Shown in pieces: positions 6,836 through 51,524 of a stretch of 64,000 bases of DNA. The notes under the pieces were generated by a model. It did no database searches. It saw only the letters and a program-made list of their open reading frames with translations, and had not been told where the DNA came from. The DNA comes from Bacteroidota bacterium. GTDB lineage: Bacteria; Bacteroidota; Ignavibacteria; UBA10030. The stretch's first letter is position 1, and every line of letters begins with the position of its first letter. The stretch is from positions 31,054-95,053 of the forward strand of contig JBBEEC010000029.1 of the NCBI GenBank assembly GCA_040880975.1, in the 5' to 3' direction. The translations under genes were made by a program, and so were the position numbers.

Positions 6836-6908
6836 CGAGTGGTGTCCTCTTTTTCCTGCCGCTCTGCAAGAAGTCGTTGAAACGACTCATGGAATTGGGA
6901 GCGAGCGC
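6836..6908 (-). repeat. ~75-bp MITE/REP-like element with internal hairpin (gtcgttgaaacgac); reverse-complement copy of elements at ~49166-49238 and ~50316-50390
   Basis: Near-identical sequence (agcgctcgctcccaattccatgagtcgtttcaacgacttcttgcagcggcaggaaaaagaggacaccac) recurs at two other loci in the opposite orientation. Confidence 0.7.
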
Positions 6909-22978: not shown

Positions 22979-22990
22979 ATTCTTGCTCCT

Positions 22991-24801: not shown

Positions 24802-25437
24802 ATGACCCAACCGACACCTCCGACAGAGTCCCAACCAAGCGAGCGGCAGAAAAAGAGATATGAGGTTTCGCTCGATACGCGGAAGTTTGAGATCGATCTG
24901 TTTTGGAGGCGTGCTCTCTTCTTCTGGGGGTTCATTGCCTCTGCCTTCGTAGCTTATGCAGCGTTTTCGAAGGATAGACCCGACGGTCCAACGATTTCTC
25001 TGATAATTTCTCTGTTTGGTCTGGTGTGCTCATTCAGTTGGACTCTTGTAAATCGTGGATCCAAATACTGGCAAGAGAACTGGGAATCGCAAGTTGACAA
25101 AGATGAAGATGCCGTCACAGGCCCGCTATTCAAACAACCCGCCGAACGTCAAAAGAAAGGTTGGTTTGGTGCTCAGAAGTTTTCAGTGAGCAAGCTTGCA
25201 ATTGCCTTAAGCGACTATGTTACGCTCGTTTGGGCTCTACTAATACTCCGCAGTGTGAGAGAAATACCCACAGTCAAGCGATTCTTGGAGGCGGACTGTT
25301 GGCCGTTTCATCTTCAAGACGATACCCTTGTTCTTGTCTTTCTTGTGTTCACGCTCGCTTGGTTGATATTTGTATTTATAAAGAGTGGAACAACAGAACG
25401 AACGCCGGGCGCTGGCGGCGCATCAACAACAGTCTAA
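24802..25437 (+). CDS. hypothetical multi-TM protein (possible SLATT-like 2TM effector; unverified)
   Basis: 211 aa. TM helices ALFFWGFIASAFVAYAAF and TISLIISLFGLVCSFSWTLV are followed by KYWQENWE and a C-terminal helix LVLVFLVFTLAWLIFVFI. Confidence 0.5.
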   Translation: MTQPTPPTESQPSERQKKRYEVSLDTRKFEIDLFWRRALFFWGFIASAFVAYAAFSKDRPDGPTISLIISLFGLVCSFSWTLVNRGSKYWQENWESQVDKDEDAVTGPLFKQPAERQKKGWFGAQKFSVSKLAIALSDYVTLVWALLILRSVREIPTVKRFLEADCWPFHLQDDTLVLVFLVFTLAWLIFVFIKSGTTERTPGAGGASTTV

Positions 25438-31296: not shown

Positions 31297-34200
31297 ATGA
31301 ACGAAGACATCAAGAGAAGAATTGAGCAGTCTCTTAGGTCGTTTGCGCAGGGAGACCTGACCAAGAATTCCATTGGTCTCTTCCAGACGCTCGGGTATGC
31401 AACGGATCGGCAAGCGCCTCTCGACAAACCAACGTACTCAAATTTCAAAGACTCCTTTGTTCAGGTTGACTCTCGATTCAACGAGGAGAAGGCCCAGACA
31501 AAGGAATGGAAGTGCGTTAACCTTCTCTTCCAGCTAACAAAGGACGAAGTCTCCCGGGACAAGTCGTTGTTTGATACGAAGCAGGTTGACCGCACGATTA
31601 TCGAGACATACCTGTTCTTTGTTATCGAACTCGCACGGCCAGAGTACAGCCGGACAGCTCTTAGCCACATCACACGTGAAGTGAACCGGCTTTTTCCGAT
31701 GCCGACATTAGTTCTCTTCAAACATGGCGGCTCGCTAACACTCTCTGTGATTGACCGACGGTTGCACAAGCGGGATGAAGCGAAAGATGTGCTGGAGAAA
31801 GTTACGTTGATCAAAGATATCAACATCACCTCCCCGCATCGCGCACACATTGACATACTGTTTGACCTCTCACTCCCTGAACTCACGCGCCGGCACTCGC
31901 CGACAAACTTCGTTGAACTGCATGGGGCATGGCGGGCAACGCTCAACATATCCGAACTGAACAAGAAATTTTACAGGGAAATCGCTGCGTGGTATTTTTG
32001 GGCTGTTCGGAGTGTCAAATTCCCACTTCCCTCGAAGGCTACAAACGAGAAGGCCAACCGAGAAATCAACGTCATTCGATTGCTCACCCGTCTCATATTC
32101 GCCTGGTTTCTCAAGGAGAAGAATCTTCTGCCAGATGACTTGTTTGACCGAATGGCCTTATCAAAGCTCCTAAGAGAATTCGATCCAACTAGCGGCAAGA
32201 AGTCAGTCTACTACAAGGCAATTCTACAGAACCTCTTCTTCGCCACACTCAACCAGAAGATGAATACGAAGGAGGAGCCGGACAATCGGCGCTTTCGGTC
32301 GAACAAACGTGGCTATCACAACTATTCTGAAGACTACGGTGTCAAGAATCTTTATCGTTATGAAGAATTGTTCTCTGACACCGGGACGGCTTTGAATTTG
32401 TTTTCTTCAGTTCCGTTCCTCAATGGTGGTCTGTTTGATTGCTTGGATAAGGAGGATCCCGACAAGAAAAACCTCATTGTGCACATCGATGGGTTTTCGG
32501 ATGTGCCGGCAAACCAACCAACGGTTCCAGATGAGGTGTTCTTTGGCCAAGAAGGCGAAATCGATCTCAGCGAGGTATACGACGATAGAAGGAAAAAGCA
32601 CGAACGGGTTCGTGGCTTGGTCCACATTCTGAAGGATTATAAGTTCACAATCGCTGAGAACACTCCGGTTGAAGAAGAAATTGCCCTCGATCCGGAATTG
32701 CTTGGCCAGATCTTTGAAAACCTCCTTGCCGAATACGTTCCCGAAACGGGAACAACGGCACGAAAACGGACCGGGAGTTTCTACACACCCCGCGAGATTG
32801 TCAATTATATGGTCGACGAAAGCCTCCTTGCATACTTAAGAGAGAAGATGCTGCGGGAAAATCCCGCGATCCTTGATGTTGGATCTGAACAGAGTGACGC
32901 TTTCGGCAACAAGGCACGCAAGGGACAACTAAGACTTGAACACAAGTTGGAGCCCAACCGTTGGCACAAAATCTCGGAAAAGCTGGACAACGAGTTGCGG
33001 AAGCTCCTCTCGTATACCGATGAATCTCTCGACTTCACAGAGCGGGATACGGAAGCCTTGATAGAAGCAATTCATTCCATGAGAGTGCTTGATCCCGCAT
33101 GTGGCTCGGGTGCCTTTGTCATGGGTGTCCTCCTCAAAGTTGTACACGTGCTTCACAAACTGGACCCTGAGAACAGTCGTTGGAAGGAGCAACAGCTTGC
33201 CGCCGTAAAGGACATGACCGCCGCCGATCTTCGTCGTGGGACCGTTGAGAGAATAGAGGAGGCCTTCAGTGCACAGAACAACTACGCCGACTACAGTCGC
33301 AAGCTCTTCCTGATCGAGGATTGCATCTACGGCGTAGACATCCAACCCATTGCTGTTCAGATTGCCAAGCTCAGATTCTTTATTTCACTGCTTGTTGACC
33401 AAAAGAACAACGATCAGAAACCAAATCGTGGTGTGCTTTCGCTCCCGAACCTTGAGACAAAGTTCGTTGCTGCCAACACACTTGTCAGCCTTGGCGGACA
33501 GGATGTACTCAAGCCCAAGGAGTTTCATGAGTTTGAAGAGAAGCTGAGGCGAGTGCGGCATGAATATTTCAATGCACGGACACGAAAGGACAAGCTGCAC
33601 TGCATCGAGGAGGACCGGAAACTAAGGCTAGTAATAGCGGAAACTCTAAAAAATCTTGGAATGCCCAAAAGTGTCATTGAGCTTCTGGCTCATTGGGACC
33701 CGTACGATCAGAATGGTGTAGCCGGTTTTTTCTCTGCAGATTGGATGTTCAGCCTCGACAAGGGTTTCGACGTTGTTATCGGCAATCCTCCTTACCTTCG
33801 AGTGCAGGGTTTGCAACAAACCCAACCGGAGTTCATTCCATACTACCGCGAGCGATACAAGTCAGCTACCGGCAATTTTGATCTCTATGCACTATTCATC
33901 GAGCGCGGATACGAACTTCTGTCCATAACCGGCATGCTCGCGTACATTGTTCCCCACAAGTTCTTCCAGGCCAGTTTTGGAGAAGGGTTGCGCCGTTTAC
34001 TCACGGCAAAGAAAGCGCTGGCACAAGTGGTTCGCTTCGGCGCCGCGCAAGTGTTTGAGGAATCGACGACGTACACATGCCTTCTCTTCTTGTCAGCAAA
34101 GGAACAAAGGGAGTTTGATCTCCTTGAAGTTAAGAGCCTTGAGAATGGTGAAGAGGTGCTCCAACACGCACGATGGAGGAATCAGCACCCGGAATACGTT

Positions 34201-35325
34201 TTTGAAACTCTACCAGAACCTGAGAAAACTGATTGGGATTTCTCAATCGGGGAATCTGGCCAAATACTGAAGCGAATGCATCAGCATCCAAAGAAGTTGG
34301 GCGAGCTAACTCATAAGATCTTCCAAGGCCTCGCCACCAGTGCGGATAAGCTTTACGTATTGGAAATCCGACATGAGGAAGAAAACACATATCGCTGCTA
34401 CTCAAGATATAATGAAACGGAATTCGAAATTGAGAAAGCTCTCGTGAAGCCGTTTCTAATGGGCAAAGATGTCCACAGGTACGAACCTGCTGTTGCCCGA
34501 AACGTTGTGATTTTTCCATACCATATCGATGAAGATACTCCCAAGCTAATGACCGCCGCATTCCTAAAGAAGGAGGCACCGTTAGGATGGAAATACTTGA
34601 AGGGAAATAGAGACGCCCTTGCCGGACGTGAAAGGGGGAAGATGGACCATGAGGAATTCTATGCCTACATCTATCCCAAGAACCTCACCGCCTTCGAATC
34701 GATCAAGATCATGACACCGGAAATTTCCCTCGGTTGCAACATGACGCTTGACTTCGAGGGGAGGCTCTACCACACCACAAAGGTCTACAGCTTTGTATTC
34801 AAAGACACCAAGAAGACTCCAACAAAGTATATGCTCGGTTTGCTCAACTCGAGAGTCCTATGGTTCTTTCTCATGAAGACGGGGTACGTGTTGCGTGGAG
34901 GGTACTACACTTTCAAAACGGATTACTTAAAACCATTCCCAATCCCAGATTCCAGCAAAGAACATCAGCAATCAATCGAAACACTTGTTGAATACGTCCT
35001 GCATTTAAAGGCAAAACCAGGAAGGGGCCCATCCGAGACGGCTCAAACTGACCTGATGACAGCATTTTTCGAGCAGCTTATCGATGGGATTGTTTACGAG
35101 TTGTACTTCCCAGAGGAATTCAAGAGCCTCGATCGAAGCGTTGCCCGTATGCTGGCTCATAACCCAATGCCCCCCCTTGCAAGCCTCAAAGGAAACAAGA
35201 AGGATGCAATTGAGGGGGTCTTCAAGAATGTGTATGACCGGGAATCAGAAATCAGAAAGGCGTCGTTCTTCATCGAGTCCATTGAATCTGCTCGGATCAT
35301 TGAGAATGCGACACGGAAGAAATGA
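31297..35325 (+). CDS. gamma-class N6-adenine DNA methyltransferase, Eco57I/PglX/DrmMI-like, with long N- and C-terminal (target-recognition?) extensions
   Basis: Motif X FYTPREIV, motif I VLDPACGSGAFV and motif IV VVIGNPPYLRV are present. Length is 1342 aa. The gene starts 8 bp after the helicase stop. Confidence 0.85.
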   Translation: MNEDIKRRIEQSLRSFAQGDLTKNSIGLFQTLGYATDRQAPLDKPTYSNFKDSFVQVDSRFNEEKAQTKEWKCVNLLFQLTKDEVSRDKSLFDTKQVDRTIIETYLFFVIELARPEYSRTALSHITREVNRLFPMPTLVLFKHGGSLTLSVIDRRLHKRDEAKDVLEKVTLIKDINITSPHRAHIDILFDLSLPELTRRHSPTNFVELHGAWRATLNISELNKKFYREIAAWYFWAVRSVKFPLPSKATNEKANREINVIRLLTRLIFAWFLKEKNLLPDDLFDRMALSKLLREFDPTSGKKSVYYKAILQNLFFATLNQKMNTKEEPDNRRFRSNKRGYHNYSEDYGVKNLYRYEELFSDTGTALNLFSSVPFLNGGLFDCLDKEDPDKKNLIVHIDGFSDVPANQPTVPDEVFFGQEGEIDLSEVYDDRRKKHERVRGLVHILKDYKFTIAENTPVEEEIALDPELLGQIFENLLAEYVPETGTTARKRTGSFYTPREIVNYMVDESLLAYLREKMLRENPAILDVGSEQSDAFGNKARKGQLRLEHKLEPNRWHKISEKLDNELRKLLSYTDESLDFTERDTEALIEAIHSMRVLDPACGSGAFVMGVLLKVVHVLHKLDPENSRWKEQQLAAVKDMTAADLRRGTVERIEEAFSAQNNYADYSRKLFLIEDCIYGVDIQPIAVQIAKLRFFISLLVDQKNNDQKPNRGVLSLPNLETKFVAANTLVSLGGQDVLKPKEFHEFEEKLRRVRHEYFNARTRKDKLHCIEEDRKLRLVIAETLKNLGMPKSVIELLAHWDPYDQNGVAGFFSADWMFSLDKGFDVVIGNPPYLRVQGLQQTQPEFIPYYRERYKSATGNFDLYALFIERGYELLSITGMLAYIVPHKFFQASFGEGLRRLLTAKKALAQVVRFGAAQVFEESTTYTCLLFLSAKEQREFDLLEVKSLENGEEVLQHARWRNQHPEYVFETLPEPEKTDWDFSIGESGQILKRMHQHPKKLGELTHKIFQGLATSADKLYVLEIRHEEENTYRCYSRYNETEFEIEKALVKPFLMGKDVHRYEPAVARNVVIFPYHIDEDTPKLMTAAFLKKEAPLGWKYLKGNRDALAGRERGKMDHEEFYAYIYPKNLTAFESIKIMTPEISLGCNMTLDFEGRLYHTTKVYSFVFKDTKKTPTKYMLGLLNSRVLWFFLMKTGYVLRGGYYTFKTDYLKPFPIPDSSKEHQQSIETLVEYVLHLKAKPGRGPSETAQTDLMTAFFEQLIDGIVYELYFPEEFKSLDRSVARMLAHNPMPPLASLKGNKKDAIEGVFKNVYDRESEIRKASFFIESIESARIIENATRKK

Positions 35326-37160
35326 GAATAAAGCAGATCGAAATCAAAGACTTCAAAGCATTTGCTGGTGAATACCCTTCTATCAAGCTTGATGGAAAGA
35401 GTTTGCTGGTATATGGCGAGAACGGGAGCGGCAAATCATCACTTGCACAAGCGCTGGACCAATTTGTAGAAACATCGACTGGAATGTTGAAGTTTGGCGA
35501 CTTCAAGAACATCTTTGCGCATGCTAATGATGGGTTCGTAAAGCTGACTTGCGAAGGCTTCGACGCTGCGGGAAATCCCGATCCAGAGAATGGCATCTAT
35601 GAGTGGTCAGAAACCTCTGATATGGTTGGCCAGGATCTCTTTGTTGACGCCTCCAAGACAAAGGGATTTCTTGACTACAAACGTTCACTCGCTGTCTATT
35701 TGCATCCAAAAGACGCGAATAGGATCGATGTTTTCGACCTCTTGATGCGGAACTTGCTTTCGCGATTTGTGAATCCGGTGAGCCGCTCAACCTTTGGAGA
35801 TGAACTTGGGGTGATGGAGCAACGCGTAAGGGCCTACTGGTATCAAGGCAACCTGAACGTCCTCAAAAGGCATTTGAGAGATTTTAATGCTGGTTTATCA
35901 GCAGTTCTTAAGGAATTGAACACCAAGGCTTCCGACATTCTCACAGAATTCGAAACAGGTGTCACCATCAGATTGGCACCTGCAAGGCTTTCTTATGGGC
36001 GGCCGCCGAAACGCTTGAAGAGGTCGCACATCGGGCTGTTTGTCCAGTACTACGGAAGAAAAATTCATCAACCTCATCTGTTTCTGAACGAAGCCAGATT
36101 ATCGGCTGTTGCCATTTCCATTTTCCTTGGTTCAATGCTGATTCAGCCATCAAGCAAGATCAAACTTCTTATCCTGGATGACATGCTCATCGGGTTGGAT
36201 TTTTCCAACCGAATGCCGTTGTTGAATGTGTTGAAAAAGCACTTCAATGACTACCAAGTGTTTATGTTGACATTTGACAGAAATTGGTTTGAGATCGCAA
36301 AGGCACTTCTGGCAAATGGCTGGGGAGCTTGTGAGATGTACGTGAGCGAACACAAGGAAGGCCCAGTCGGCGCCGAGGTAGTCATCGGTAACAAGCCTCA
36401 AATCGTCCAACCTTCAGACAGCTATCTTGACAAGGCGAAAAAGTACTTTGAAGCATTCGATTATCCAGCTGCGGCAAACTACCTTAGGAAGCGATGTGAA
36501 GAGTTGATCGACGATCTGCTTCCACTCTCCTACAAGATCGAACCGACCAACGGCTTTGGATCGAGGGAAATAACAAAACTGGATGGATTGATTGACAGAT
36601 TAAAGATGCTCTTCGAGGACTGTGAGGAATCAGCACCTCGTGCAGTTGAAAGCTTATTAAGGCTTCTCAAGAAGGCTACACTAAATCCGATGTCGCACCA
36701 CGATCTCGAGAGTCCAATCTACAGGGTTGAAGTTGAGCAGCTCTTTGATCTTGTGGACGAACTTGCCAACTTACCGAGATTGAAAAGACAGATTTGCCTC
36801 AAGGCCGGAAGCAGAGCTGCATATCATTTCACGGATGCCACGCGCGAATACAGCATCGATATAGAGCTAGTTGCAGACCTGCTTGTGATCACTGTGAACG
36901 GCAATAGTCGGTTTAACAAAGCGAAGTGGAAGATAGCAACGTGGGCGCTGAATGGGGTTGAGTTCTCTAGCATGGATCTCGCAAACCATCAGAGGCTAGG
37001 ACCTGATATCATCGAGAAAACGTGCGCCCAAGAGAGGCATCTCGAAGGAATAGCGAATGGTGTGTTTGGACCGCGTGGACTTGCCGTCACCCCACCGCGG
37101 GATGTCTTGGCGGAATTCAAAGTGACGAATGGTGGTACGTTGAGGGACTTGTTAGAGTAA
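35322..37160 (+). CDS. ABC/SMC-like (AAA_15/AAA_21-type) ATPase
   Basis: The N-terminus IEIKDFKAFAGEYPSIKLDGKSLLVYGENGSGKSSLAQAL carries Walker A, and KIKLLILDDMLIGLDFSN carries Walker B plus D-loop. The start ATGA overlaps the methyltransferase stop. Confidence 0.7.
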   Translation: MRIKQIEIKDFKAFAGEYPSIKLDGKSLLVYGENGSGKSSLAQALDQFVETSTGMLKFGDFKNIFAHANDGFVKLTCEGFDAAGNPDPENGIYEWSETSDMVGQDLFVDASKTKGFLDYKRSLAVYLHPKDANRIDVFDLLMRNLLSRFVNPVSRSTFGDELGVMEQRVRAYWYQGNLNVLKRHLRDFNAGLSAVLKELNTKASDILTEFETGVTIRLAPARLSYGRPPKRLKRSHIGLFVQYYGRKIHQPHLFLNEARLSAVAISIFLGSMLIQPSSKIKLLILDDMLIGLDFSNRMPLLNVLKKHFNDYQVFMLTFDRNWFEIAKALLANGWGACEMYVSEHKEGPVGAEVVIGNKPQIVQPSDSYLDKAKKYFEAFDYPAAANYLRKRCEELIDDLLPLSYKIEPTNGFGSREITKLDGLIDRLKMLFEDCEESAPRAVESLLRLLKKATLNPMSHHDLESPIYRVEVEQLFDLVDELANLPRLKRQICLKAGSRAAYHFTDATREYSIDIELVADLLVITVNGNSRFNKAKWKIATWALNGVEFSSMDLANHQRLGPDIIEKTCAQERHLEGIANGVFGPRGLAVTPPRDVLAEFKVTNGGTLRDLLE

Positions 37161-38847: not shown

Positions 38848-39246
38848 ATGCCCCAAGCGGAGATTTCCGGAATATCACCTTTTTTTATCGTGAGCAACGT
38901 GCCGTCGTCGCTTTCGTTCTACCGGGACCGGCTTGGATTTGAAGTCACCTTCCAGGGGCCTTCTCCGGACGATATCTTCTTCGGAATTGTCCGCAGGGGC
39001 GGTGCACAGATCCTGCTCAAAGACGTTGGCGTAGCTCCTCTTCCGAACTATAAGCGAGACGTCGGAAAAGGGTTCGCCCGGTGGGACGCATTCGTTGTCG
39101 TCCCGGATCCTGATGCACTTGCGGCCGAATTTGCCTCGCGCAATGTGGAGTTTTCCGAACCGCTGAATGACACCGAAGACGGCCTGCGTGGTTTCGAGGT
39201 CAAGGACCCCGATGGCTATGTCTTGTTCTTCGGCCGTCCCCGATAA
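38848..39246 (+). CDS. VOC-family glyoxalase/bleomycin-resistance-like protein
   Basis: 132 aa with a glyoxalase-like fold signature. Its 3' half and downstream sequence are duplicated at 41439-41700, and a remnant lies at 40219-40285. Confidence 0.65.
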   Translation: MPQAEISGISPFFIVSNVPSSLSFYRDRLGFEVTFQGPSPDDIFFGIVRRGGAQILLKDVGVAPLPNYKRDVGKGFARWDAFVVVPDPDALAAEFASRNVEFSEPLNDTEDGLRGFEVKDPDGYVLFFGRPR

Positions 39247-39249
39247 ATC

Positions 39250-40700
39250 CGTTCCTACCAGGAAATAGAACACGCCTGCGTGCCGAAACAGTTATTGAAT
39301 CTGGAAGAGTACCAAATCACTCCGGCGTGCCCGCCTGAACGACGTAGTCGGGCAGGCCTCCGGCACGCAGGCAGGGATTGACGCGGATATATCATACGAT
39401 TCCGGCGATTTACCTGTGCACTCCGTGATCCTCCTGTAGTTTGCCTTCTACGCGCCCTGAGCCCCCGTCCCAAAGGGGAGGGGCGAAAATACGAAATCAC
39501 AATATCGAAATACAAAACAATATTAAAATACTAAATCTCAAACATCTCGGTTTTGAGGATTAGACATTAGAATTTGTTTCGCCCGCCCCTTTCTTGCTTG
39601 ACAAGGGCCAGGGAATTTCGTGTTTATGATTTCGGATTTTAATCGCACGGTGGGTGACAGATGGTCTGTTCCCCCTAATGGATATTCCATGGAGGGGTCC
39701 CTTCGGGAAAAATTTCGGCCCCTTTCATCGCCCCGGGATAAATCCCGGGGCTAGATCACCTCACGTAGAGCACAATTCCCCTAAAGGGGAATCCAAACCG
39801 TAAAACAGAAAACGACAAAGAACAAACTGAAATCAAACAGAAAGAAGAAAACAGAAATTAACAGCGGAGGGGGGTGGGATTTCTGAACAACAATTCCTTC
39901 ACTGCGCGTGCCATTTACTCGCCCTGAGCTCCCGAAATTTCGGCGGTGCGGTGAGGTCTTCCCCTGCAGTGCGTTAAATTCCGGCACAGTTTGAACAACT
40001 CTTTCGGTACGGAGACTGTTTAAGTGCCGGAATTTCGGATCAATTAAGCCTTATCCCAGGTGTGCGGTGGGTGACAAATGGTGTGTTAAATTTCGGCGCC
40101 CTTTTCTTTTCGTCCATTTTCTTTTGGGCGAACAAAAGAAAATGGACTCGCCGAAGGCAACTAGCCGAACAAAGGTCCAATCACCAGACTCCCCCTCATC
40201 CAACAACCCCTTTCGAAGGGTCTGCGTGGCTTCGAGGTCAAGGACGCCGACGGCTATGTCTTGTTCTTCGGCCGTCCAAGGTGATGAGCGTCGAGCCAAA
40301 TGGCGTCGAGGACCGCGACTTCTGACTTCTGACCTCCGACGTGTCCCTATTCGGTCGCCCCTACGGGGCTATATCCAGTTATCGTTATACTCTGCTACCA
40401 GAAGGCCGTCCCTAAAGGGACTGTTGTCTGACACACTGACCTCCGAACTCTGACTCGGCCGCTCCTATCCCGAAGGGATCCCTTTGGGACGGAGCTTCCT
40501 GTGTTTGTGTTAGATTCTTTTCTACCAATAGATCGCCCCGCCCGACCGAACAATGCGATAGCTCAAACGGTCGTTCGGGCGGGCCCTACGGGGCTTTTCG
40601 GATTTCCGACCTCTGACCCTTCGCTTCGCTCAGGGCATGCTTCCGACCTCGGACTTCCGACCTCGGACTTCCGACTTCCGACCTCCGATGTGTCCCATAT
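39250..40700. repeat. repeat mosaic (A-rich 190-bp element copy 39750-39960, GACTTCC/GACCTCC heptamer tracts, REP-like hairpins) incl. ~110-nt element with 12-bp terminal stem at 39262-39372
   Basis: Shares long identical stretches with 21930-22170, 23640-23760 and 42350-42530. Confidence 0.75.
40219..40285 (+). pseudogene. remnant of glyoxalase gene 3' end (GLRGFEVKDADGYVLFFGRP*)
   Basis: Near-identical to 39183-39246. Confidence 0.5.
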
Positions 40701-40711
40701 CGAGGATATCA

Positions 40712-41017
40712 TTATGGCGGATCGACCGGCGGACTCTCCGGTTCAAAATCCATAAGCCGCTTGTTTATTTTCTTTGCCGTTTTCTTGTTGGAACAATAGA
40801 ACTGATCCCGACTCATTCCACATTGACGGATCATGCTCGCCATCAGATCAGCCCAGAATTCATCCACCCCCATGTCAACTGTTACAATTCGCCTCTTTCC
40901 GCCAAAATATCCCTCATAATTCTCATGGCTACCCTCATGACTTTTATAGGCAAAACCCCGGGCTTTGAGGATGGCAATTACTTCTTGCGGCGAGAGAGGC
41001 GGGTATTTCTTAGGCAA
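40712..41017 (-). CDS. hicA: HicA-family mRNA interferase toxin
   Basis: The N-terminus MPKKYPPLSPQEVIAILKARGFAYKSHEGSHENY is typical of HicA/YcfA. The gene is adjacent to hicB. Confidence 0.7.
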   Translation of the reverse strand: MPKKYPPLSPQEVIAILKARGFAYKSHEGSHENYEGYFGGKRRIVTVDMGVDEFWADLMASMIRQCGMSRDQFYCSNKKTAKKINKRLMDFEPESPPVDPP

Positions 41018-41327
41018 GATTCAATCGGCGGGATGTGGGGTCGTAATCACCGGAAAAGGTGATCGTATCCCAAGCCCGTGTCATGAATCCGAGAAGCATG
41101 ATAACATTCCACCGCGCACGATGAATCAACGGTGCCTTCCGAATGAACTCTCCCCTCATGATTTCATCGACATCAAATGACTTGAGGTAGACTAAGAGTG
41201 CATCTCTCATCTTGCGCTCAACTTCCGCTAATGAATGCCCCTGTACTGCAATATCTGTTTCAAGGCAAATGGCGAAGAACCCATCTCCACTCTTGCGCCC
41301 TACAATCCTTAAATGGATTGACTGCAT
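41010..41327 (-). CDS. hicB: HicB-family antitoxin (UPF0150)
   Basis: 105 aa with an RNase-H-like HicB N-domain pattern (...FFAICLETDIAVQGHSLAEVERKMRDAL...). It overlaps hicA by 8 nt. Confidence 0.65.
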   Translation of the reverse strand: MQSIHLRIVGRKSGDGFFAICLETDIAVQGHSLAEVERKMRDALLVYLKSFDVDEIMRGEFIRKAPLIHRARWNVIMLLGFMTRAWDTITFSGDYDPTSRRLNLA

Positions 41328-41381
41328 GGGTGACTACTCCTTTAACTTTGGATTCCGGGGAAAATTCCCCCTAAACTGAGT

Positions 41382-41669
41382 GTGTCAAGCATGTTGATCA
41401 CAACGAAGATAAACCTAAAATCGCTGCAAGTCAAGCCACGCAAAGACGTTGGCGTAGCTCCGCTTCCGAACTATAAGCGAGACGTCGGAAAAGGGTTCGC
41501 CCGGTGGGACGCATTCGTTGTCGTCCCGGATCCTGATGCGCTTGCGGCCGAATTTGCCTCGCGCAACGTGGAGTTTTCCGAACCGCTGAAAGACTCCGAA
41601 GACGGCCTGCGCGGTTTCGAGGTGAAGGACACCGATGGCTATGTCTTGTTCTTCGGCCGTCCCCGATAA
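41382..41669 (+). pseudogene. 5'-truncated duplicate of the glyoxalase gene (homology begins at KDVGVAPLPNYKRD)
   Basis: 76 C-terminal residues are ~96% identical to 38848-39246. The 19-aa N-terminus is unrelated. Confidence 0.6.
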
Positions 41670-41699
41670 ATCCGTTCCTGCCAGGAAATAGAACACGGA

Positions 41700-42790
41700 A
41701 AAAGCGGATTAGACGGATTGTTACGGATAACGAATCCTCCAATTCGAGGCAAGGGGAATGGGGAACAAATCCGAAATCACAAATTCCAAATACGAAACAA
41801 TATCTAAGAATAAAATTCTAACGTATGCAATTCCTGTGCCCTAGCCCCGAAATTGTGGCTGTGCGGGGAGGAATTCAATAGCAGTGCGTTAAATTCCGGC
41901 GCAGATTCATCCATGATTGAGAATTGATTCAACGTCGGGCGCCGGAATTTCGGAATGTTTAAGCTCAAACACTGTTGTGCTGAGGGTAACATAAGGTGCG
42001 TTTCAATTTCGGAAGAATGTTCTCTTTGCTACTTTTCCCGCTCTTTGGATCCCGCCATGAGCGGGATCCTGGGAGGCGGGACTCTTTTGAAGAGAAAGTA
42101 GACTAGCGCTAGCAAATGGTCGAGATTAATCCAACAGATCGGGCTTATTCCCTCTTGAACATCCTCATCCAAAGTGCCTCGCCGTAGGCCCAGAGCCGAT
42201 CAATGACTCACCCAGTCTTCCCCTCATCCCCCCGCCAAAAATCGTGTCGGGCAGGCCAACCCCTTTCGAAGAGAAGTAGACCAACGTTCGCAGATGGCTG
42301 AGAATTCACAATGGTCGCAGTCTTATCGACGGGATTTGCAGACCTTACTGCCAGGAAATAGAACACGCCTGCGTGCCGAAACAGTTATTGAATCTGGAAG
42401 ATTACCAAATCACTCCGGCGTGCAGGCACGGAAAAATCGGATTAGACGCCTGCCTGCCGGAGTGCCCGCCTGAACGACGTAGTCGGGCAGGCCTCCGGCA
42501 CGCAGGCAGGGATTGACGCGGATATATCATGAGAATACTCCGACCTCTGACTCGGTCGCCCCTACGGGGCTACGACGGATCGGTTTGTGTTATTCTTTCT
42601 ACCAACAGACCGCCCCTACGGGGCTCAATCCGTGAATCCTTCTTTCTTCTTACTGATTTCTGCCTACCTCCTAAAATGCTTCCCCATCTGACTTCTGACC
42701 TTCCGCCTGCGCCCTACGGGCTTCGGCGGACAGGCCGACCTCTGACCTTGCGCTCGACCTGAATTTAGTCTATATTATGGTCGACCCAAA
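41700..42790. repeat. repeat mosaic incl. copies of the 70-bp palindromic element (42018-42090), ccagagccgatcaatgac unit, the ~110-nt stem element (42350-42530) and GACCTCT heptamer/ccctacgggg hairpin units
   Basis: Direct matches to 22418-22595 and 39259-39420. Confidence 0.75.
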
Positions 42791-45563: not shown

Positions 45564-47471
45564 ATGCGCATTCCTGACCAAAAAATCGATGAAATCCGGT
45601 CCTCGAGCGACATTGTCGATGTCATTTCTGCCGTCGTTCGGCTGAAGAAGCGGGGGAAGAGCTACATCGGATTGTGCCCATTTCACCAGGAAAAAACCCC
45701 CTCGTTTACCGTGAGCGCCGAGAAGCAGATGTTCCACTGTTTCGGATGCGCGAAAGGGGGGAATGTCTTTACGTTCGTCATGGAGATCGAACACGTCTCG
45801 TTTGTCGAAGCAGTTCGAAGCCTGGCGGAACGTGCCGGGATCGTCCTGACGACCGAATCCGGCCAGAGCCAGAAGCAAACGGAATTCGAAGAGCTTTTTG
45901 CAGCGTGCAAGTTCGCCGCTCAGCATTTCTACAAGAATCTTGATACTCCTGATGGCCCGGTAGGAAAGAGCGCTCTCGAATACTTTCACTCCCGGGGCTT
46001 CTCCGACGCTACCATTAACTCATTCGGATTGGGATACTCGAAAAATTCATGGGATGGCTTGTTGACCGCGGCTCAGCAGGAGGGAATTCCCGTAGCGCAC
46101 CTCGTGAAGGCAGGGCTTGTGAGGGCCCGCGATGACGGAAGCGGCCATTATGACTATTTCCGCGGCCGCGCTATGTTTCCGATCTTCTCAGCCACCGGCC
46201 GCGTGATCGCTTTCGGCGCCCGCAAAATGCGCGAGGACGATCCGATCCAGGGCAAGTATATCAATTCACCCGAAACGCCGGTTTATAACAAATCCCGCGT
46301 TCTCTTCGGGCTCTTTCAATCCAAGGAAGCGATCCGGGCCGAAGAAACTGCGCTCATGGTCGAAGGATATGCGGATCTCATTTCGCTGTTTCAAGCCGGC
46401 GTTCAGAACGTCGTGGCTTCAAGCGGAACGGCTCTGACCGAGGAGCAGGTCAAACTCGTGGGCAAATACGCGAGAACGATCGTGCTTGTCTATGATGCCG
46501 ACTCGGCCGGTTCGCAGGCGGCTGTGCGCGGACTTGACATCGCTCTCGAGCAGGGTCTCGACGTCCACATCGCCTCTCTGCCCCCGGGGCATGATCCGGA
46601 TTCCTTTGTCCGAAAGCAGGGCGCGAAGGAGTTTCGGACCCTCGTTGAACAGGCCGTCTCGTTCATCGATTTCAAGGCGGGCATGTTTGCAGCCCGCGGA
46701 CGATTTGCCACGCCCGAAGGGAAAACAGAGGCCGTCCGCTCGATTGTCCAATCGATTGCAAAAATCAACGACGAGCTGAAGCGGAACTTCTTTGTGAAAG
46801 CTGTTGCCGACAAGTACCAGATCTACGAGTCTGTCTTGTATCGCGAGCTCGAACGCTGGGTGGCGCGCGACAAACCCCCGATACGCGGAAGCTCTTTCCA
46901 GGACCGCCGCGCCGCCGCAGGTACCAGCCAGGCCCCATCTGCTGTATCACTGCCCACCGCCGAGCGGGAGATTCTGCGGATTGTCTGCGAGAACCGGACC
47001 GCATTGATCAACGAGATATTCTCGGCGATCTCGGTGGACGACCTGAGCGATGCCCGTGTGCGGAAACTAGTGCAGATCGTGCTTGAGCGGATTGAAAACA
47101 CCGGGTCAGTGGACTCGACAGCCCTCGTGAATGAACTCGAAGACCCCGACCTGAAGAGTGTCTATACTGATGTGATGCTGAGCCGGTACGATCTCAGCAA
47201 GGGTTGGCAGGAAATGGAAGTCGAGATCGAAGAGCCGGATCCCGCTAAGATCGCGAAAGCCGCCGTGGCGGCCATCAAACGAAAGGCTCTGCGGACGGAG
47301 ATCGAGCAGAATCATAACCTCATGAGTGCAGCGAAGCAACGAGGCGAAGAAACCAGGCCCTTCATCGAGCGCCACCAGGAACTCAGTCGCACATTGCGGA
47401 ATCTTGAAAGCGTAAACTCGAAATCCGAAATCCAAAATCCGAAACAAGAAAACCAAAACCCGAAATTCTAA
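45564..47471 (+). CDS. dnaG: DNA primase
   Basis: CHC2 zinc finger CPFHQEKTPSFTVSAEKQMFHCFGC. Toprim motifs EGYADLIS and VLVYDADSAG. The start Met (MRIPDQKIDEI) is internal to the ORF-track ORF. The 3' end runs into heptamer repeats. Confidence 0.88.
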   Translation: MRIPDQKIDEIRSSSDIVDVISAVVRLKKRGKSYIGLCPFHQEKTPSFTVSAEKQMFHCFGCAKGGNVFTFVMEIEHVSFVEAVRSLAERAGIVLTTESGQSQKQTEFEELFAACKFAAQHFYKNLDTPDGPVGKSALEYFHSRGFSDATINSFGLGYSKNSWDGLLTAAQQEGIPVAHLVKAGLVRARDDGSGHYDYFRGRAMFPIFSATGRVIAFGARKMREDDPIQGKYINSPETPVYNKSRVLFGLFQSKEAIRAEETALMVEGYADLISLFQAGVQNVVASSGTALTEEQVKLVGKYARTIVLVYDADSAGSQAAVRGLDIALEQGLDVHIASLPPGHDPDSFVRKQGAKEFRTLVEQAVSFIDFKAGMFAARGRFATPEGKTEAVRSIVQSIAKINDELKRNFFVKAVADKYQIYESVLYRELERWVARDKPPIRGSSFQDRRAAAGTSQAPSAVSLPTAEREILRIVCENRTALINEIFSAISVDDLSDARVRKLVQIVLERIENTGSVDSTALVNELEDPDLKSVYTDVMLSRYDLSKGWQEMEVEIEEPDPAKIAKAAVAAIKRKALRTEIEQNHNLMSAAKQRGEETRPFIERHQELSRTLRNLESVNSKSEIQNPKQENQNPKF

Positions 47472-47524
47472 ACCCGAACTTCGAACCTCGAACTTCGAAC
47501 TTCGAACTTCAAACTTCAAACCCC

Positions 47525-47755
47525 ATGCCAGTCAACCAGCCTCTGATGATCCACATCGTTCCCGGCAAATGCGACTACTGCGGTTGCTGTGTCGGCGTTT
47601 GTCCCGAAGATGCCATCGAACTCATGGAATCGAAGATCGAGATCATCGAGGAACGGTGCACGAATTGCAAAAAATGCGTCTGGGCGTGCCCGTGGGAAGT
47701 GATTGAGTTTCATCGAGAAGGAGTTGAAGATCTGCCGAAAGAGATCACTTTGTGA
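47525..47755 (+). CDS. 2x[4Fe-4S] ferredoxin
   Basis: Carries the two cluster motifs CDYCGCCVGVCP and CTNCKKCVWACP. Confidence 0.75.
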   Translation: MPVNQPLMIHIVPGKCDYCGCCVGVCPEDAIELMESKIEIIEERCTNCKKCVWACPWEVIEFHREGVEDLPKEITL

Positions 47756-47882
47756 AATTCGAAATCCAAAATTCGAAGCTCGAAACAAATTCTAATGTCA
47801 GAATCCGAAGTGGATGGCTTTTAGTGCTTAGGATTTGTTTCGAATTTTGTTTTTAGTATTTCGAAATTTCAACAAAGGTCTG

Positions 47883-49049
47883 ATGAAGGAATCGTACGAT
47901 ATTATTGTAGTTGGCGCTGGTCCCGCGGGGGCTACCGCAGCCCGTTACGCCGCGGCCGGGGGCGCTTCCGTCCTGATGCTCGAAAAGGACCGCGATGTCG
48001 GCTATCCGGTCCGCTGCGGAGAGGCCGTGAGCCACGAGGGCGTCATTCAGTTCATTGAACCCGATCCGAAATGGATCGCGTCAACCGTCACAAGATTCCG
48101 GCTCGTCGCTCCGAACGGCAATGAGGTCATTCCGAGACTCGACGGCCTGGGATACGTGCTCGAACGGCGCATTTTCGACTACGAGGTCGCCAAACTCGCC
48201 GCGGCGGAAGGGGCGGAAGTGGTGACCAAGGCGTATGTGTACGATCTCCTGAAACCTGATGGAAAAGCGGAAGGAGTCAAGGTCCTTCTGAAGGATGAGA
48301 AGATCGAGATCAGGGGAAAGGTTGTTATTGCAGCGGACGGCGTGGAGAGCCGTGTAGGCAAGTGGGCAGGCATCGATACCACGTGTCACATCAGGGATAT
48401 GGAAAGCTGTGCGCAGATGACGATTGCGGGAATTGACGTGGAGGACGATGTTCTGGATTTCTACTTCGGCGATGACGTGTCCCCAGGTGGGTACCTTTGG
48501 GTGTTCCCCAAGGGGAAGCATACGGCCAATGTCGGCTTGGGGGTGAGTGTCGAGTCGGCAAAGAAAAAATCAGCCATCCGCTTTCTTCTCGAGTTTGTGG
48601 AAAAAAAATTTCCCAACGCAGCAGTTCTGACGCAAATCGCCGGGGGAGTTCCATGCGCGAAAACCTGTGACACAATCGTGAAGAACAACGTTTTGCTTGT
48701 GGGCGATGCGGCTCACCAGGTGAACCCGACGTCCGGTGGGGGGATCATTAGCGGAATGATAGGCGGGATGATTGCCGGGCAGGTGGCCGCGGAAGCGATC
48801 AAGAAACAAGATCTCTCCCACCTCACCGAATATCAGAAGCGATGGCACAAACGGTTGGGCTGGCGGCATGAAGTGTTCTATACGATCAAAGAGGCGATTT
48901 CCGATTTCAGCGATGAGACGCTGAATCAGATTGCTGCCGGTGCGCTGAAGTTGCCCGAAAACAAAAGAACCCTCGGTGGAATATTCCGCACCGCCCTCTG
49001 GAACAAGCCCTCCCTCCTCATCGATGTCGCAAAAGTATTCGTTTCCTGA
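47883..49049 (+). CDS. geranylgeranyl reductase-family FAD-dependent oxidoreductase
   Basis: The N-terminus YDIIVVGAGPAGATAARYAA is an FAD-binding GxGxxG motif. The length and motif spacing match the geranylgeranyl reductase family. Confidence 0.75.
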   Translation: MKESYDIIVVGAGPAGATAARYAAAGGASVLMLEKDRDVGYPVRCGEAVSHEGVIQFIEPDPKWIASTVTRFRLVAPNGNEVIPRLDGLGYVLERRIFDYEVAKLAAAEGAEVVTKAYVYDLLKPDGKAEGVKVLLKDEKIEIRGKVVIAADGVESRVGKWAGIDTTCHIRDMESCAQMTIAGIDVEDDVLDFYFGDDVSPGGYLWVFPKGKHTANVGLGVSVESAKKKSAIRFLLEFVEKKFPNAAVLTQIAGGVPCAKTCDTIVKNNVLLVGDAAHQVNPTSGGGIISGMIGGMIAGQVAAEAIKKQDLSHLTEYQKRWHKRLGWRHEVFYTIKEAISDFSDETLNQIAAGALKLPENKRTLGGIFRTALWNKPSLLIDVAKVFVS

Positions 49050-49252
49050 CCTCCCAACAGGAAACCGTTAAAACGGTTCCTGGTCACATTGTGCTGGTTG
49101 TATTTCCCCCAACTTTCCGCCTGCGTGCATACAGCGCACTTCGGCGGACAGGAAGTTGGGGGAAATACCCACTCGCTCCCAATTCCATGAGTCGTTTCAA
49201 CGACTTCTTGCAGCGCGGTAGACAAAAGAGGACACCACCTTCTGCGGGTAGT
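49008..49252 (+). repeat. direct repeat copy A (~245 bp) flanking the brnTA cassette; includes last ~40 bp of the reductase gene, a long hairpin (cccccaactttccgcc...ggcggacaggaagttggggg) and the 75-bp MITE-like core
   Basis: ~95% identical to 50172-50412. Confidence 0.85.
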
Positions 49253-49504
49253 GGGTCAGTGTGAATTAAAGATAAACGCAGAGACCGGGAGGACGTCCCG
49301 CTATCCCGCCAAGAAGAGGCGGGACACAAAAAGCGTGAAGGCGGCGGGATAAACAGAGAATTGCAGAGGAACTGCCCATTTTGCTTGATCCCTCTGCGTC
49401 CCTCTGCGCTCTCTGCGACTCTGCGATTTTCTTTACAACGGAAATTGACCCACTACCCTTTTTGCTTTTGTTGACAATGTATATCATTTGTAATATATTG
49501 AGTT

Positions 49505-49774
49505 GTGGATATTCTCTGGGACGAGGCAAAGAATAACAAACTCAAAGAACCCCGCGGCGTCTCGTTTGAAGATGTCTGCCAGATTATTCTTGACAAGAAA
49601 TATCTTGCTGTGCTTGAGAATACGGCACATCCCGGGCAGAACATCTTCGTCGTAGGTTACAAGGGATACACGTACATCGTTCCGTTCATCATTGATGCTG
49701 ACGACAATATCGTCCTCAAGACAGTATTTCCGAGCAGGAAGTTTCACAAATTGTATGGAGAGAAGATGCGATGA
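49505..49774 (+). CDS. brnT: BrnT-family toxin (DUF497)
   Basis: 89 aa. ILWDEAKNNKLKEPRGVSFEDV...VVGYKGYTYIVPFIIDADDNIVLKTVFPSRKF matches the BrnT pattern. Confidence 0.7.
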   Translation: MDILWDEAKNNKLKEPRGVSFEDVCQIILDKKYLAVLENTAHPGQNIFVVGYKGYTYIVPFIIDADDNIVLKTVFPSRKFHKLYGEKMR

Positions 49775-50070
49775 AAGCAAAACTTGATTCCTTCGAGCGG
49801 CAGATTGAACGTGCCGCGGGTTCGTATCGTCCGCTCTCCCAAAAAAGGAGGCAGAAGGTGGAAGCTCTTCTTGACCGCGTACGCAAGAGCCGGACGATCA
49901 GCATACGAATTGCCGAGAGCGTCCTGGAGGAACTGAAACGTCGATCCCAGGAAGAAGGGCTGCCGTACCAGACATTGATCTCGAGCATCTTGCATAAGTA
50001 TGTCACGAATCGTCTCGTTGACGAGAAAGCAATCCGCAAGTCTCTTCAGATGATGCAGCAGATTGATTAA
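49771..50070 (+). CDS. brnA: BrnA-family antitoxin (RHH/CopG-like)
   Basis: 99 aa. It overlaps the brnT stop. ISIRIAESVLEELKRRSQEEGLPYQTLISSILHKYV is typical of BrnA. Confidence 0.7.
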   Translation: MKAKLDSFERQIERAAGSYRPLSQKRRQKVEALLDRVRKSRTISIRIAESVLEELKRRSQEEGLPYQTLISSILHKYVTNRLVDEKAIRKSLQMMQQID

Positions 50071-50171
50071 CCTGAGGTTGGGACACAGAGGGCACGGAGA
50101 ATCACAGAGTTCACAGAGTTCACAGAGAAAAAAAATGGTGAATCGTAAAGAGCAAACCGTAAAATCAAAAA

Positions 50172-50412
50172 CCCTCCCTCCTCATCGATGTCGCAAAAGT
50201 ATTCGTTTCCTGACCTCACAACAGGAAATCGTTAAAACGGTTCCTGGTCACATTGTGCTGGTTGTATTCCCCCCAACTTTCCGCCTGCGTGCATACAGCG
50301 CACTTCGGCGGACAGGAAGTTGGGGGGAATACCCGCTCGCTCCCAATTCCATGAGTCGTTTCAACGACTTCTTGCAGCGCGGTAGACAAAAGAGGACACC
50401 ACCTTCCTGCGG
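50172..50412 (+). repeat. direct repeat copy B flanking brnTA
   Basis: See copy A. It is preceded by a CACAGAG heptamer tract at 50085-50140. Confidence 0.85.
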
Positions 50413-50456
50413 CATTCATTGCAACTCTCTCAGTTGAATCGTATATTGTCTCAAAG

Positions 50457-51524
50457 ATGAGCAGCGATTCCACCTTTCCTCAAAAGATTCTCATCGTTCG
50501 CACCGACCGCATTGGTGATGTTGTCCTTTCCCTTCCCATGATCGCTGCCCTGAGATCACTTGCGCCGGGGGCCCTTGTTGCGTTCCTGCTGCGGTCGTAC
50601 ACAAAGGATCTTGTCAGGGACCAGCAGGGATTGGACCAGATCCTGTTGTATGACCGGGGGGGAGTGCGAAAAAAATTCAGGGAGATGCTCTCAGAAATCC
50701 GGTCAAACCGCTTTGATGCCGTGATCGTGACCTATCCCACATTGCGACTGGGGCTTCTTGCGTTCTTTGCTCGGATCCCCTGGCGGATCGGAACGGGATT
50801 CCGATGGTATTCGTTTCTCTTCAATAAGAAGGTCTTTGAGCACCGGAAAACCGCTGAAAAGCATGAAGCCGAGTATAACCTCTCGTTGCTGCGCGTCTTC
50901 GGCGATGTTGTCGAAAAGAACGCCTTGCCGAAGTTGATGGTGACGAAAGAGAATGAGAGAGAGGCAATGGAAGTCCTTCATGAAATGAGCATGACAGAAA
51001 ACAGCCCGTTCGTGATCCTCCATCCTGGAAGCGGCGGTTCGGCGAGGGATTGGCGGCCTGAGTCGTTTGGGAAGCTCGGAGCTCGTCTCGCAGAACGGGG
51101 GCTGAACGTCGTGGTAACGGGAGGGCCGGCAGAGGAGAGATTGAAAGACACTGTTGTGCAGCATTCCAAGAGCACCGCAAAGGCCCTTCCGCGGGCGTTG
51201 CCACTTTTGACGCTTGCTGCGCTGATCCGTAAAGCCGCTGTGTTTGTTTCCAACTCGACGGGTCCGCTCCATATCGCCGCAGCCGTCGGCACACCGGTTG
51301 TTGCGTTCTATCCACCCATCCGCCAATGCAGCCCGACGCGCTGGGGCCCCTTAACGGACCGGAAGGTCATCTTTGAACCCCGGGCGGCCGATTGTCCCAG
51401 GTGCAAAGGAGGACCATGCGAATCCAATGTTTGCATGGATCTGATCACAGTTGAAGCCGTGGAAAAGGCCGTGAATTCCTTGCTGGCCAAGACTGAATCT
51501 CACCCGGTGGAGGTTAGGCGATGA
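50457..51524 (+). CDS. glycosyltransferase family 9 (LPS heptosyltransferase-like)
   Basis: The N-terminus KILIVRTDRIGDVVLSLPMIAAL is GT9-type. Length is 355 aa. Confidence 0.75.
   Translation: MSSDSTFPQKILIVRTDRIGDVVLSLPMIAALRSLAPGALVAFLLRSYTKDLVRDQQGLDQILLYDRGGVRKKFREMLSEIRSNRFDAVIVTYPTLRLGLLAFFARIPWRIGTGFRWYSFLFNKKVFEHRKTAEKHEAEYNLSLLRVFGDVVEKNALPKLMVTKENEREAMEVLHEMSMTENSPFVILHPGSGGSARDWRPESFGKLGARLAERGLNVVVTGGPAEERLKDTVVQHSKSTAKALPRALPLLTLAALIRKAAVFVSNSTGPLHIAAAVGTPVVAFYPPIRQCSPTRWGPLTDRKVIFEPRAADCPRCKGGPCESNVCMDLITVEAVEKAVNSLLAKTESHPVEVRR

Follow-up and report, generated by a model that had tools for sequence, protein, structure and literature searches.

Architecture of the locus

The DNA analysed here (the window) is a 64,000-nucleotide stretch of contig JBBEEC010000029.1, from the metagenome-assembled genome (MAG) of a Bacteroidota bacterium of the class Ignavibacteria (GCA_040880975.1). 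Between a geranylgeranyl-reductase-family gene (GGR) and a family-9 glycosyltransferase gene there is a gap of 1,407 bp, and this gap holds a candidate brnTA toxin–antitoxin (TA) pair enclosed by two long direct repeats (Table 1; coordinates are positions in the window throughout). Gapped comparison of 49008-49247 with 50172-50412 gave 97.5% identity over 241 columns (E = 6e-92), and a repeat search of the window returned a gapless alignment of 49005-49242 with 50169-50406 at 97%. The left copy of 240 bp and the right copy of 241 bp were distinguished by five substitutions (49054, 49065, 49105, 49163 and 49171) and one indel (49241), and the longest unbroken identity between them was 70 bp. 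The original prediction had described repeats of ~245 bp with ~95% identity, and the similarity proved to be real and far beyond chance.

Each copy was found to begin with the final 42 bp of GGR, stop codon included, followed by a linker of 6 bp, an imperfect palindrome of 185 bp that we call E and a tail of 7-10 bp. Both open with ccctccctcctcatcgatgtcgcaaaagtattcgtttcctga (ccctcc...tttcctga, 42 nt), in agreement with the earlier claim that they begin with the last ~40 coding bp of the reductase gene. On the left this segment (49008-49049) is the true end of the open reading frame (ORF), whose product ends in PSLLIDVAKVFVS where its counterpart in relatives ends in PSLLLDVARVFVS. On the right it is a displaced stub without function, and the repeat runs uninterrupted into the native glycosyltransferase promoter. 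The 48 bp derived from GGR are unique and the E portion is a dispersed element. The long GC hairpin that had been announced for both copies was recovered as a 69-nt hairpin in each. A 75-bp MITE-like core (MITE, miniature inverted-repeat transposable element) had also been announced; the core was real and the length was not, since the recurring part measured 67-70 bp.

Table 1 Positions of the features at the brnTA locus, and at a second locus of similar layout, in the window
Feature	Position	Strand	Remarks
GGR, geranylgeranyl-reductase-family gene, intact, 388 amino acids	47883..49049	+	Pfam GGR_cat 3.6e-27, FAD_binding_3; C-terminus conserved in relatives
Left direct repeat	49008..49247	+	Native GGR 3′ end 49008-49049, linker, E, ~7-10-bp tail
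E, left copy, 185-bp imperfect palindrome, three hairpins	49056..49240	+	Boundaries set by independent copy in contig L009
Central 69-nt hairpin, left E	49100..49168	+	25-nt arms, 84% complementary; RNA fold −41.6 kcal/mol; substitutions retain pairing
Palindromic spacer, 214 bp, part of insert	49246..49459	+	13-bp terminal inverted repeats GGGTAGTGGGTCA / TGACCCACTACCC, CTCTGCG heptamers; fold z = −5.95
brnTA promoter, TTGACA-N17-TATATT	49471..49499	+	11/12 consensus matches; inside stretch 49470-50052 common to other brnTA loci
brnT, predicted RNase-type toxin, 89 amino acids, GTG start	49505..49774	+	Pfam BrnT_toxin E = 2.2e-6, below cut-off; fold match 3u97
brnA, predicted ribbon-helix-helix antitoxin, 99 amino acids, 4-bp overlap with brnT	49771..50070	+	Pfam CopG_antitoxin, BrnA_antitoxin
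Right spacer of insert, 101 bp	50071..50171	+	CACAGAG heptamer repeats, A-rich tail, GC 43%
Right direct repeat	50172..50412	+	GGR 3′ end copy 50172-50213, linker, E 50220-50405, tail
E, right copy	50220..50405	+	Within right repeat
Central 69-nt hairpin, right E	50264..50332	+	
Native glycosyltransferase promoter, TTGCAA-N17-TATATT	50419..50447	+	Conserved in relatives
Family-9 glycosyltransferase, heptosyltransferase-like	50457..51524	+	Pfam Glyco_transf_9 1.2e-29; direct downstream neighbour of GGR in relatives
Partial third E copy, right-hand 67 bp only, between ispD and plsY	6839..6905	−	94% identical
Second example, left repeat	39018..39274	+	Last 229 bp of glyoxalase-family gene (38848-39246) + 28 bp of structured element Y
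Second example, cargo: hicA-like toxin 40712-41017, overlapping hicB-like ORF 41010-41327	40712..41327	−	Pfam HicA_toxin E = 8e-6, just under cut-off
Second example, right repeat	41441..41697	+	5′-truncated glyoxalase gene 3′ end + Y, 96% identical to left

The insert carries a predicted brnTA module

The insert between the repeats measures 924 bp and is made up of a palindromic spacer, a promoter, brnT, brnA and a heptamer spacer. The two genes are co-oriented, with the toxin gene upstream and one shared promoter. BrnT scored 28.3 bits against Pfam BrnT_toxin (PF04365), under the 34.5-bit cut-off; an exhaustive search returned 868 homologs, and PF04365 was matched by 48 of the 77 aligned members. 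Sequence searches of the PDB with BrnT were uninformative and a fold comparison was needed. An AlphaFold model built on the homolog alignment (predicted local distance difference test, pLDDT, 90.6) had its best solved-structure match in Brucella abortus BrnT, 3u97 (probability 1.00, template-modelling score 0.73, root-mean-square deviation 2.6 Å), with HigB-type toxins ranking after it. BrnA was above the Pfam cut-offs for both PF14384 (29.5 bits, cut-off 26.1) and PF12441 (31.8 bits, cut-off 28). With the modelled fold taken into account, assigning the pair to brnTA is justified at the family level. Like the Brucella abortus BrnT/BrnA system (3u97; PF04365, PF14384), it has the toxin gene first, an overlapping antitoxin gene and a ribbon-helix-helix antitoxin, but the window toxin shares 18% sequence identity with 3u97 and its Pfam score lies under the curated cut-off.

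Homologs of BrnA at 70-89% identity were common in Ignavibacteria-like MAGs. The closest brnTA homologs occurred in at least three unrelated contexts, and their nucleotide similarity to the window (77%) was limited to 49470-50052, which comprises the promoter and both genes. The GC content was 47% in the cassette, 43% in the right spacer and 55-56% in the flanking genes. The brnTA cargo is mobile and was probably acquired horizontally. The 214-bp spacer had no counterpart in relatives, and the 1.46-kb region had no similarity to plasmid or phage collections. Exact-protein look-ups with GGR, BrnA and P0001 returned no contigs from an index that is without the window's own assembly.

An 88%-identical BrnA homolog (P0124) was found on a 3.5-kb contig of a MAG labelled 'Candidatus Hodarchaeales archaeon', which reflects either wrong binning of a bacterial contig or a transfer of the brnTA cassette between domains. 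Heptamers such as those of the insert spacers recur in the window as intergenic 7-nt tandem arrays (8685-8831, 47400-47520, 47755-47868, 49391-49435 and 50085-50125), with the units GGTTCAA, CGAAATC/CGAACTT, CTCTGCG and CACAGAG. Heptamers of the CACAGAG/CTCTGTG type were also seen in the GGR–glycosyltransferase spacer of a relative (L002, 1290-1400).

The junction is empty in relatives

The junction was compared with that of relatives whose GGR shares 92% (L002-L004) or 86% (L005-L008) amino-acid identity with that of the window, and with 80 GTDB species representatives. The gene order of the window (dnaG, ferredoxin, GGR, glycosyltransferase, DUF3108) was also present in L002-L008. In these relatives the GGR–glycosyltransferase gap was 281 bp or 71 bp, without brnTA and without E, and in the closest GTDB clade it was 12-80 bp. 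brnTA was absent from the junction in L002-L008 and in the GTDB representatives that retain the downstream glycosyltransferase, and a second GGR 3′ end was found at 0 of the 80 species-representative loci. More than 85 orthologous loci in which the glycosyltransferase comes directly after GGR lacked brnTA, E and any second GGR 3′ end, so that brnTA is a lineage-specific insertion into a conserved junction.

When the insert and E were removed in silico, the window aligned colinearly with the relatives through the stop codon, ~20 nt and the promoter (TTGCAACTC...GTATATTG). The only parts of the repeat that aligned to the empty sites (L002-L008 and the GTDB loci) were the 42-bp GGR 3′ end and the short promoter-side tail; the 185-bp E was absent from the empty sites. 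The original prediction had proposed comparing the orthologous locus in relatives and had argued for insertion, not ancestral presence. The comparison returned an empty junction, with no relative carrying brnTA there without repeats, and the argument held up: all compared relatives with the glycosyltransferase in view lacked brnTA, and its homologs lay in unrelated contexts. The accompanying description of the repeats as a 'duplicated target' stood for the GGR 3′ end and the tail, which align to empty sites, but not in the same way for E, which is absent there and whose prior presence we only infer.

The GGR 3′ end was also considered as a general integration hotspot and was rejected as such, since 0 of 80 species had a second GGR 3′ end or a comparable insert. 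Long direct repeats at the loci of two other relatives turned out to be tandem ORF6N paralogs (L050) and non-coding repeats round an HU-like gene (L097), both unrelated to the arrangement in the window. In L002, the spacer at 1243-1523 contains two ~46-bp direct repeats (cacaAGAGAcGCGGATGGCGAArCCATGCCTTCGGCAGAAAAGCAG) flanking a ~95-bp palindrome, a miniature layout of an insert between direct repeats at the same GGR–glycosyltransferase junction.

E is a dispersed structured element

An exact-match scan of JGI metagenomes with a 30-mer from the repeat matched a single contig, L009. This contig covers the orthologous queA-ispD region of a related species (84% nucleotide identity to window 1671-6907) and carries at 5157-5346, downstream of ispD, a ~190-bp copy of E that is 95-96% identical and without GGR sequence. 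Because this full-length copy stands without GGR sequence, E is an independent element, separable from the GGR end; at the corresponding ispD site of the window there remains just the right-hand 67 bp. Copies of E were retrieved from two loci in two species, at intergenic sites and in either orientation. A 35-mer from the E core gave 0 matches in an exact-match scan of a genome collection, an ORF-based search for E found none of the ORFs that gene callers might place across it, and E was not found at the loci of the 80 related species. A scan of 47-51 kb against Rfam matched E to no family and gave only sub-threshold miRNA-like hairpin matches. Neither E insertion site showed a convincing target-site duplication, and there was no transposase among ORFs of at least 180 amino acids in the window. 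E resembles MITEs and repetitive extragenic palindromic (REP)-type palindromes in being ~185 bp long and non-coding, with hairpin-like inverted ends, and in occupying unrelated intergenic sites in either orientation; unlike MITEs, it has no identified target-site duplication or parent transposase, and only 3-4 copies were retrieved.

E is self-complementary over 49049-49219 (63%), with two similar terminal hairpins plus the central one, and its whole-element fold z was −5.1. All five stem substitutions among the four copies keep plus-strand RNA pairing, one being a compensatory change from T-A to C-G and four being transitions to G.U pairs; read on the minus strand, the substitutions give A.C mismatches (−46 to −35 kcal/mol for the second MAG, L001). 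This is a hint that plus-strand transcripts of E are structured. Selection on the hairpin at the RNA level was considered and rejected, one compensatory pair and four G.U transitions being too few for significance (about P = 0.06).

Between the two strains, the mismatch rate of E was ~3.4x that of its flanks (4/241 versus 37/7,560, P = 0.03). The right copy was nearer than the left copy to the L009 E at three of four informative positions. The window's species and that of L009 share 84% identity in the flanking genes and 95-96% in E, yet E diverges fast between strains of one species, a pattern that points to recent spread or gene conversion and not to vertical descent.

Support for the assembled structure

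The six positions that distinguish the repeat copies lie at most 70 nt apart, so that each copy is phased to its own flanks. The second MAG (L001, GCA_040901785.1, 99.5% identical) reads from brnA through the spacer, the GGR 3′ copy and E into the glycosyltransferase. The k-mer length of Logan assemblies is 31. One such contig from another run (L102; 99.99%, 1 mismatch in 9,964 bp) starts exactly where the right copy yields its first unique 31-mer; the 31-mer before that one is common to both copies and has two successors, indicating that both junction variants were present in that read set. An assembly artefact is unlikely. It would require one true repeat, with brnTA on a small circle or elsewhere and an assembler that threaded a graph loop, and it draws on the facts that all sources are short-read metagenome assemblies and that in the second MAG the assembly breaks on either side of the left repeat. 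We give this very little credence, as the phasing differences, the independent joining of brnA, right repeat and glycosyltransferase in L001, and the start of L102, which coincides to the base with the divergence point of the copies, all speak against it.

Proposed origin of the insert

These data suggest that brnTA is probably a self-promoted type II TA module that was acquired horizontally and inserted between two syntenic housekeeping genes, duplicating ~240 bp of the target. The ancestral state would be the one seen in relatives, in which the GGR stop codon is followed by a ~20-nt spacer, the TTGCAA...TATATT promoter and the glycosyltransferase. In the window lineage, the MITE-like 185-bp E would then have landed 6 bp past the GGR stop codon; parsimony places this step before the insertion, because E is absent at the site in every relative. 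In the end-state that we observed, a 924-bp segment is flanked on each side by a unit made up of the final 42 bp of GGR, linker, E and tail. Since the stop codon lies within the duplicated segment, the left-hand GGR frame is complete, and the glycosyltransferase has retained its own promoter on the right-hand side. Host recombination or repair would most likely have made this structure, because no transposase or integrase is present in cis; none was found among ORFs of at least 180 amino acids in the 64-kb window.

Two routes would fit this end-state. In route (a), a single step, breaks ~240 bp apart on the two strands would be followed by capture of foreign DNA and fill-in. Route (b) would be one-ended homologous recombination, in which incoming DNA anchored in GGR carries its own GGR end, E and brnTA; its non-homologous end would join illegitimately at a point 42 bp short of the resident stop codon, so that the 3′ end and E already in place are displaced downstream.

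Several points weigh against an origin by insertion with target duplication. No genome with a single copy of the GGR 3′ end plus E occurred among those compared. Divergence between the repeat copies is 2.5%, and the genome-wide figure for the two strains is 0.5%; an old event, a fast-evolving E or parental alleles that were not the same would each fit this value, which favours neither route (a) nor route (b). Only the window's own assembly showed the left junction (GGR, E, spacer, brnT), and 48977-49723 is unassembled in the second MAG. By analogy BrnT is an RNase-family toxin, so that the DNA-break account offered for restriction enzymes cannot apply to it. TA function and post-segregational killing by the window brnTA are predicted only. 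The mechanism of long-target-duplication insertion is moreover unsettled even in published cases (PMC2853133).

Comparison with known insertions

Insertion with long target duplication was reportedly described by Nobusato et al. in 2000 (Gene 259:99). By genome comparison, Furuta, Abe and Kobayashi found in 2010 restriction-modification units with repeats of 46-423 bp and 93-99% identity (PMC2853133). Such repeats often span the stop or start codon of a neighbour, the target gene survives and there are no linked mobility genes; double-strand breaks are possibly involved, and the repeats permit amplification or excision (PMC2853133). The features by which that study recognized its cases were compared with the window. 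For flanking repeats longer than 30 bp, the window has 240/241 bp at 97.5% identity; for a repeat that occurs once at the empty site of a related genome, the 42-bp GGR 3′ end and the promoter-side tail align there and E does not; for an insert shorter than 20 kb without linked transposase, integrase or prophage, it has 924 bp and no recombinase among ORFs of at least 180 amino acids; and for a repeat that is not high-copy, a feature meant to exclude chance insertion between repeats, the 48 bp from GGR are unique and E has a partial third copy in the window and one in L009. The window insert is like the published cases in being a small unit without mobility genes between long target-derived repeats over a stop codon. 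It differs in its cargo, since the published cargo was restriction-modification 'and other DNAs', for which DNA breakage by the cargo was suggested, whereas here it is a TA pair with a predicted RNase-type toxin; it also differs in that most of the duplicated target is the repeat element E, which is lacking in the available empty-site genomes. In the searchable literature, long target duplication was cited for TA systems only by analogy. Taken by analogy with these cases, the locus is a TA-cargo example of a pattern known for restriction-modification units and not a new kind of element.

The same end product could be reached in several steps, if the GGR 3′ end, E and insert were duplicated in tandem and recombination with an insert-less allele then removed the second insert copy. 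This route has been set out as an alternative to long target duplication in rRNA operons (PMC3457768). It would explain the 2.5% divergence if the right copy came from another allele, and the greater closeness of the right copy to the L009 E is in its favour. We nevertheless consider it unlikely, as three events are needed, the precursor allele is in no assembly or relative compared, and the second insert copy left no trace.

Site-specific integration was weighed as a further alternative and appears improbable. The repeats would in this case be the left and right attachment sites (attL and attR) of a small non-autonomous cassette whose recombinase is encoded elsewhere (integron-like or Xer/dif-module-like); the target would be the GGR 3′ end or the E hairpin, and an element-borne copy of the gene end would keep GGR intact. 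The repeat does begin in a gene 3′ end and restore the ORF, as many integrative elements do (PMC2853133), Ignavibacteriae are known to have integrons (PMC9024848), the long imperfect hairpin of E shows bulged bases and carries AAC...GTT in its arms, and a brnTA module of the same family lies between attC-like repeats in another contig, L020. However, the L009 E is without GGR sequence, so that the 48 bp upstream of E cannot have been duplicated by recombination inside E, and the 240-bp identity far exceeds usual att cores. No integrase was encoded by ORFs of at least 180 amino acids in the 64 kb, and the L020 attC-like core was absent from the window. A second GGR 3′ end was found in 0 of 80 relatives, and none with the downstream gene in view had an insertion at the GGR 3′ end.

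The integron version of this alternative was examined by stem geometry. An attC site was defined by the boxes R″(RYYYAAC)-L″...L′-R′(GTTRRRY), together with extrahelical single bases and a cassette boundary lying at G/TT of R′. The E hairpin does contain CCCCAAC...GTTGGGG, but a 16-bp perfect outer stem extends 9 bp beyond the boxes and the two bulges are of 4 nt, which is non-canonical for attC. The repeat reaches 92 bp upstream and ~80 bp downstream of the hairpin, into coding DNA. An integron would further be expected to have an integrase nearby or an array of at least two attC sites with cassettes; the window had no tyrosine recombinase among ORFs of at least 180 amino acids and no copy of the L020 attC-like core. 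The window locus shares with integron gene cassettes a promoter-bearing TA pair as a compact module, and the brnTA family occurs between attC-like repeats in L020; unlike them, it has no integron integrase or canonical attC, consists of a single module and has repeats that include chromosomal coding sequence. The integron reading was rejected on the lack of an integrase, the absence of the L020 core and the stem geometry.

In L020 itself (Ga0194120_10007948, 3540-6550), next to yidD, four attC-like repeats (...CRTATAAC-N8-AACCAC GCAGTCCGYCTGAGGCGGATTGAGCGAG ... GTGGTT-N6-GTTATGCG) set apart four units, namely a brnTA module, a Tricorn-like gene, an MNT/HepT pair and a DUF2442 gene. The arrangement appears to be an integron-like array, or one of the clusters of attC sites lacking integrases (CALIN), in an Ignavibacteria-like genome; the 8.3 kb of sequence covered contain no integrase.

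A second, putative TA pair between gene 3′-end repeats

Elsewhere in the window (38848-42543), a hicAB-like pair lies between 257-bp direct repeats. The hicB-like ORF had no Pfam match and its identity follows from its position. As in the brnTA case, the repeated unit is a gene 3′ end, here of a glyoxalase-family gene, together with the structured element just after it, here termed Y. A third stub of the glyoxalase gene (59 nt, 40219-40277) carries synonymous differences and a different stop codon, which indicates that it came from a diverged allele. The stubs fit successive 3′-end displacement, as in route (b), better than simple target duplication. Additional copies of Y with different internal deletions were seen at 39252-39408 and 42345-42543.

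One-ended homologous plus illegitimate recombination that leaves 3′ stubs has been proposed, as a hypothesis only, for Rhs loci and for effector-immunity arrays of type VI secretion systems (PMC5361080). The likeness is that a conserved gene upstream anchors the incoming DNA, the former 3′ end becomes a downstream orphan stub and successive events build arrays of stubs; the three glyoxalase-gene 3′ ends of the window, one of them from a diverged allele, resemble this. The difference is that the published systems swap a variable toxin domain and keep immunity genes, whereas in the window the reductase product is unchanged and the cargo is unrelated.

The second locus also bears on the view that repeats and brnTA came together by coincidence. 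Slippage or template switching at the hairpins could have placed a copy of the 240-bp segment ~1.1 kb further downstream, in an event separate from brnTA's arrival; as a variant, E could have inserted twice into a short 57-bp duplicated target. Long hairpins are hotspots for replication errors, intergenic repeats and palindromes abound in the lineage, and the spacer of a relative too has 46-bp direct repeats round a palindrome. Against this, the two copies enclose exactly the insert, whose ends fall on the repeat boundaries, this geometry is seen again round hicAB, and two independent E insertions at an identical position are unparsimonious. Coincidence in either form is improbable.

Structured elements after genes (E after GGR, Y after the glyoxalase gene) might even actively direct cassette capture, an idea that we regard as speculative and doubtful. 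A hairpin-provoked break, a template switch or an unlinked recombinase could insert the TA module beside the element and copy the gene 3′ end and element as a unit. If this were true, cassettes could be acquired without a cargo-encoded nuclease, and long-target-duplication insertion would be a general entry of addiction modules, not only of restriction-modification units, into core-gene junctions that are left undamaged.

Predicted consequences of the repeat structure

RecA-type recombination between the repeats would delete brnTA as a 1,164-bp circle, and unequal exchange would amplify the module. The statement in the original prediction that recombination would excise brnTA precisely is right as geometry, and such excision would be expected to leave GGR and the glycosyltransferase promoter intact; no excised allele or circle was observed. 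Should BrnT outlive BrnA, cells losing the module would be poisoned and the insert thereby stabilized. The 240-bp repeats also lead to the prediction that RecA-mediated loss happens often and, provided the TA pair is active, is selected against, which would offer a direct assay for chromosomal addiction. The routes by which TA modules without mobility genes of their own reach new chromosomal sites are poorly documented. The locus would offer a clean before/after picture of one, with the ancestral junction in dozens of relatives and both neighbours apparently left functional by a duplication that spans the stop codon. A TA cargo with a toxin that, by analogy, cuts RNA argues for a mechanism independent of DNA cleavage by the cargo.

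A putative defence island surrounds the second locus

The hicAB-like locus lies within an island of ~24 kb (21226-45527) between groEL and dnaG, two genes that are adjacent in L005-L008. The island looks like a defence island and contains a PLD+SNF2 helicase (27957-31289), an Eco57I/MmeI-type methylase (31297-35325), an SMC-like ATPase (35322-37160), an 8xMP membrane protein (24802-25437) and three TA pairs; no recombinase was found among its ORFs of at least 180 amino acids. Two of its regions, 21300-24100 and 39600-42550, share about fifteen families of non-coding repeat modules of 40-185 bp, which are arranged in mosaic order and include many GC-rich hairpins.

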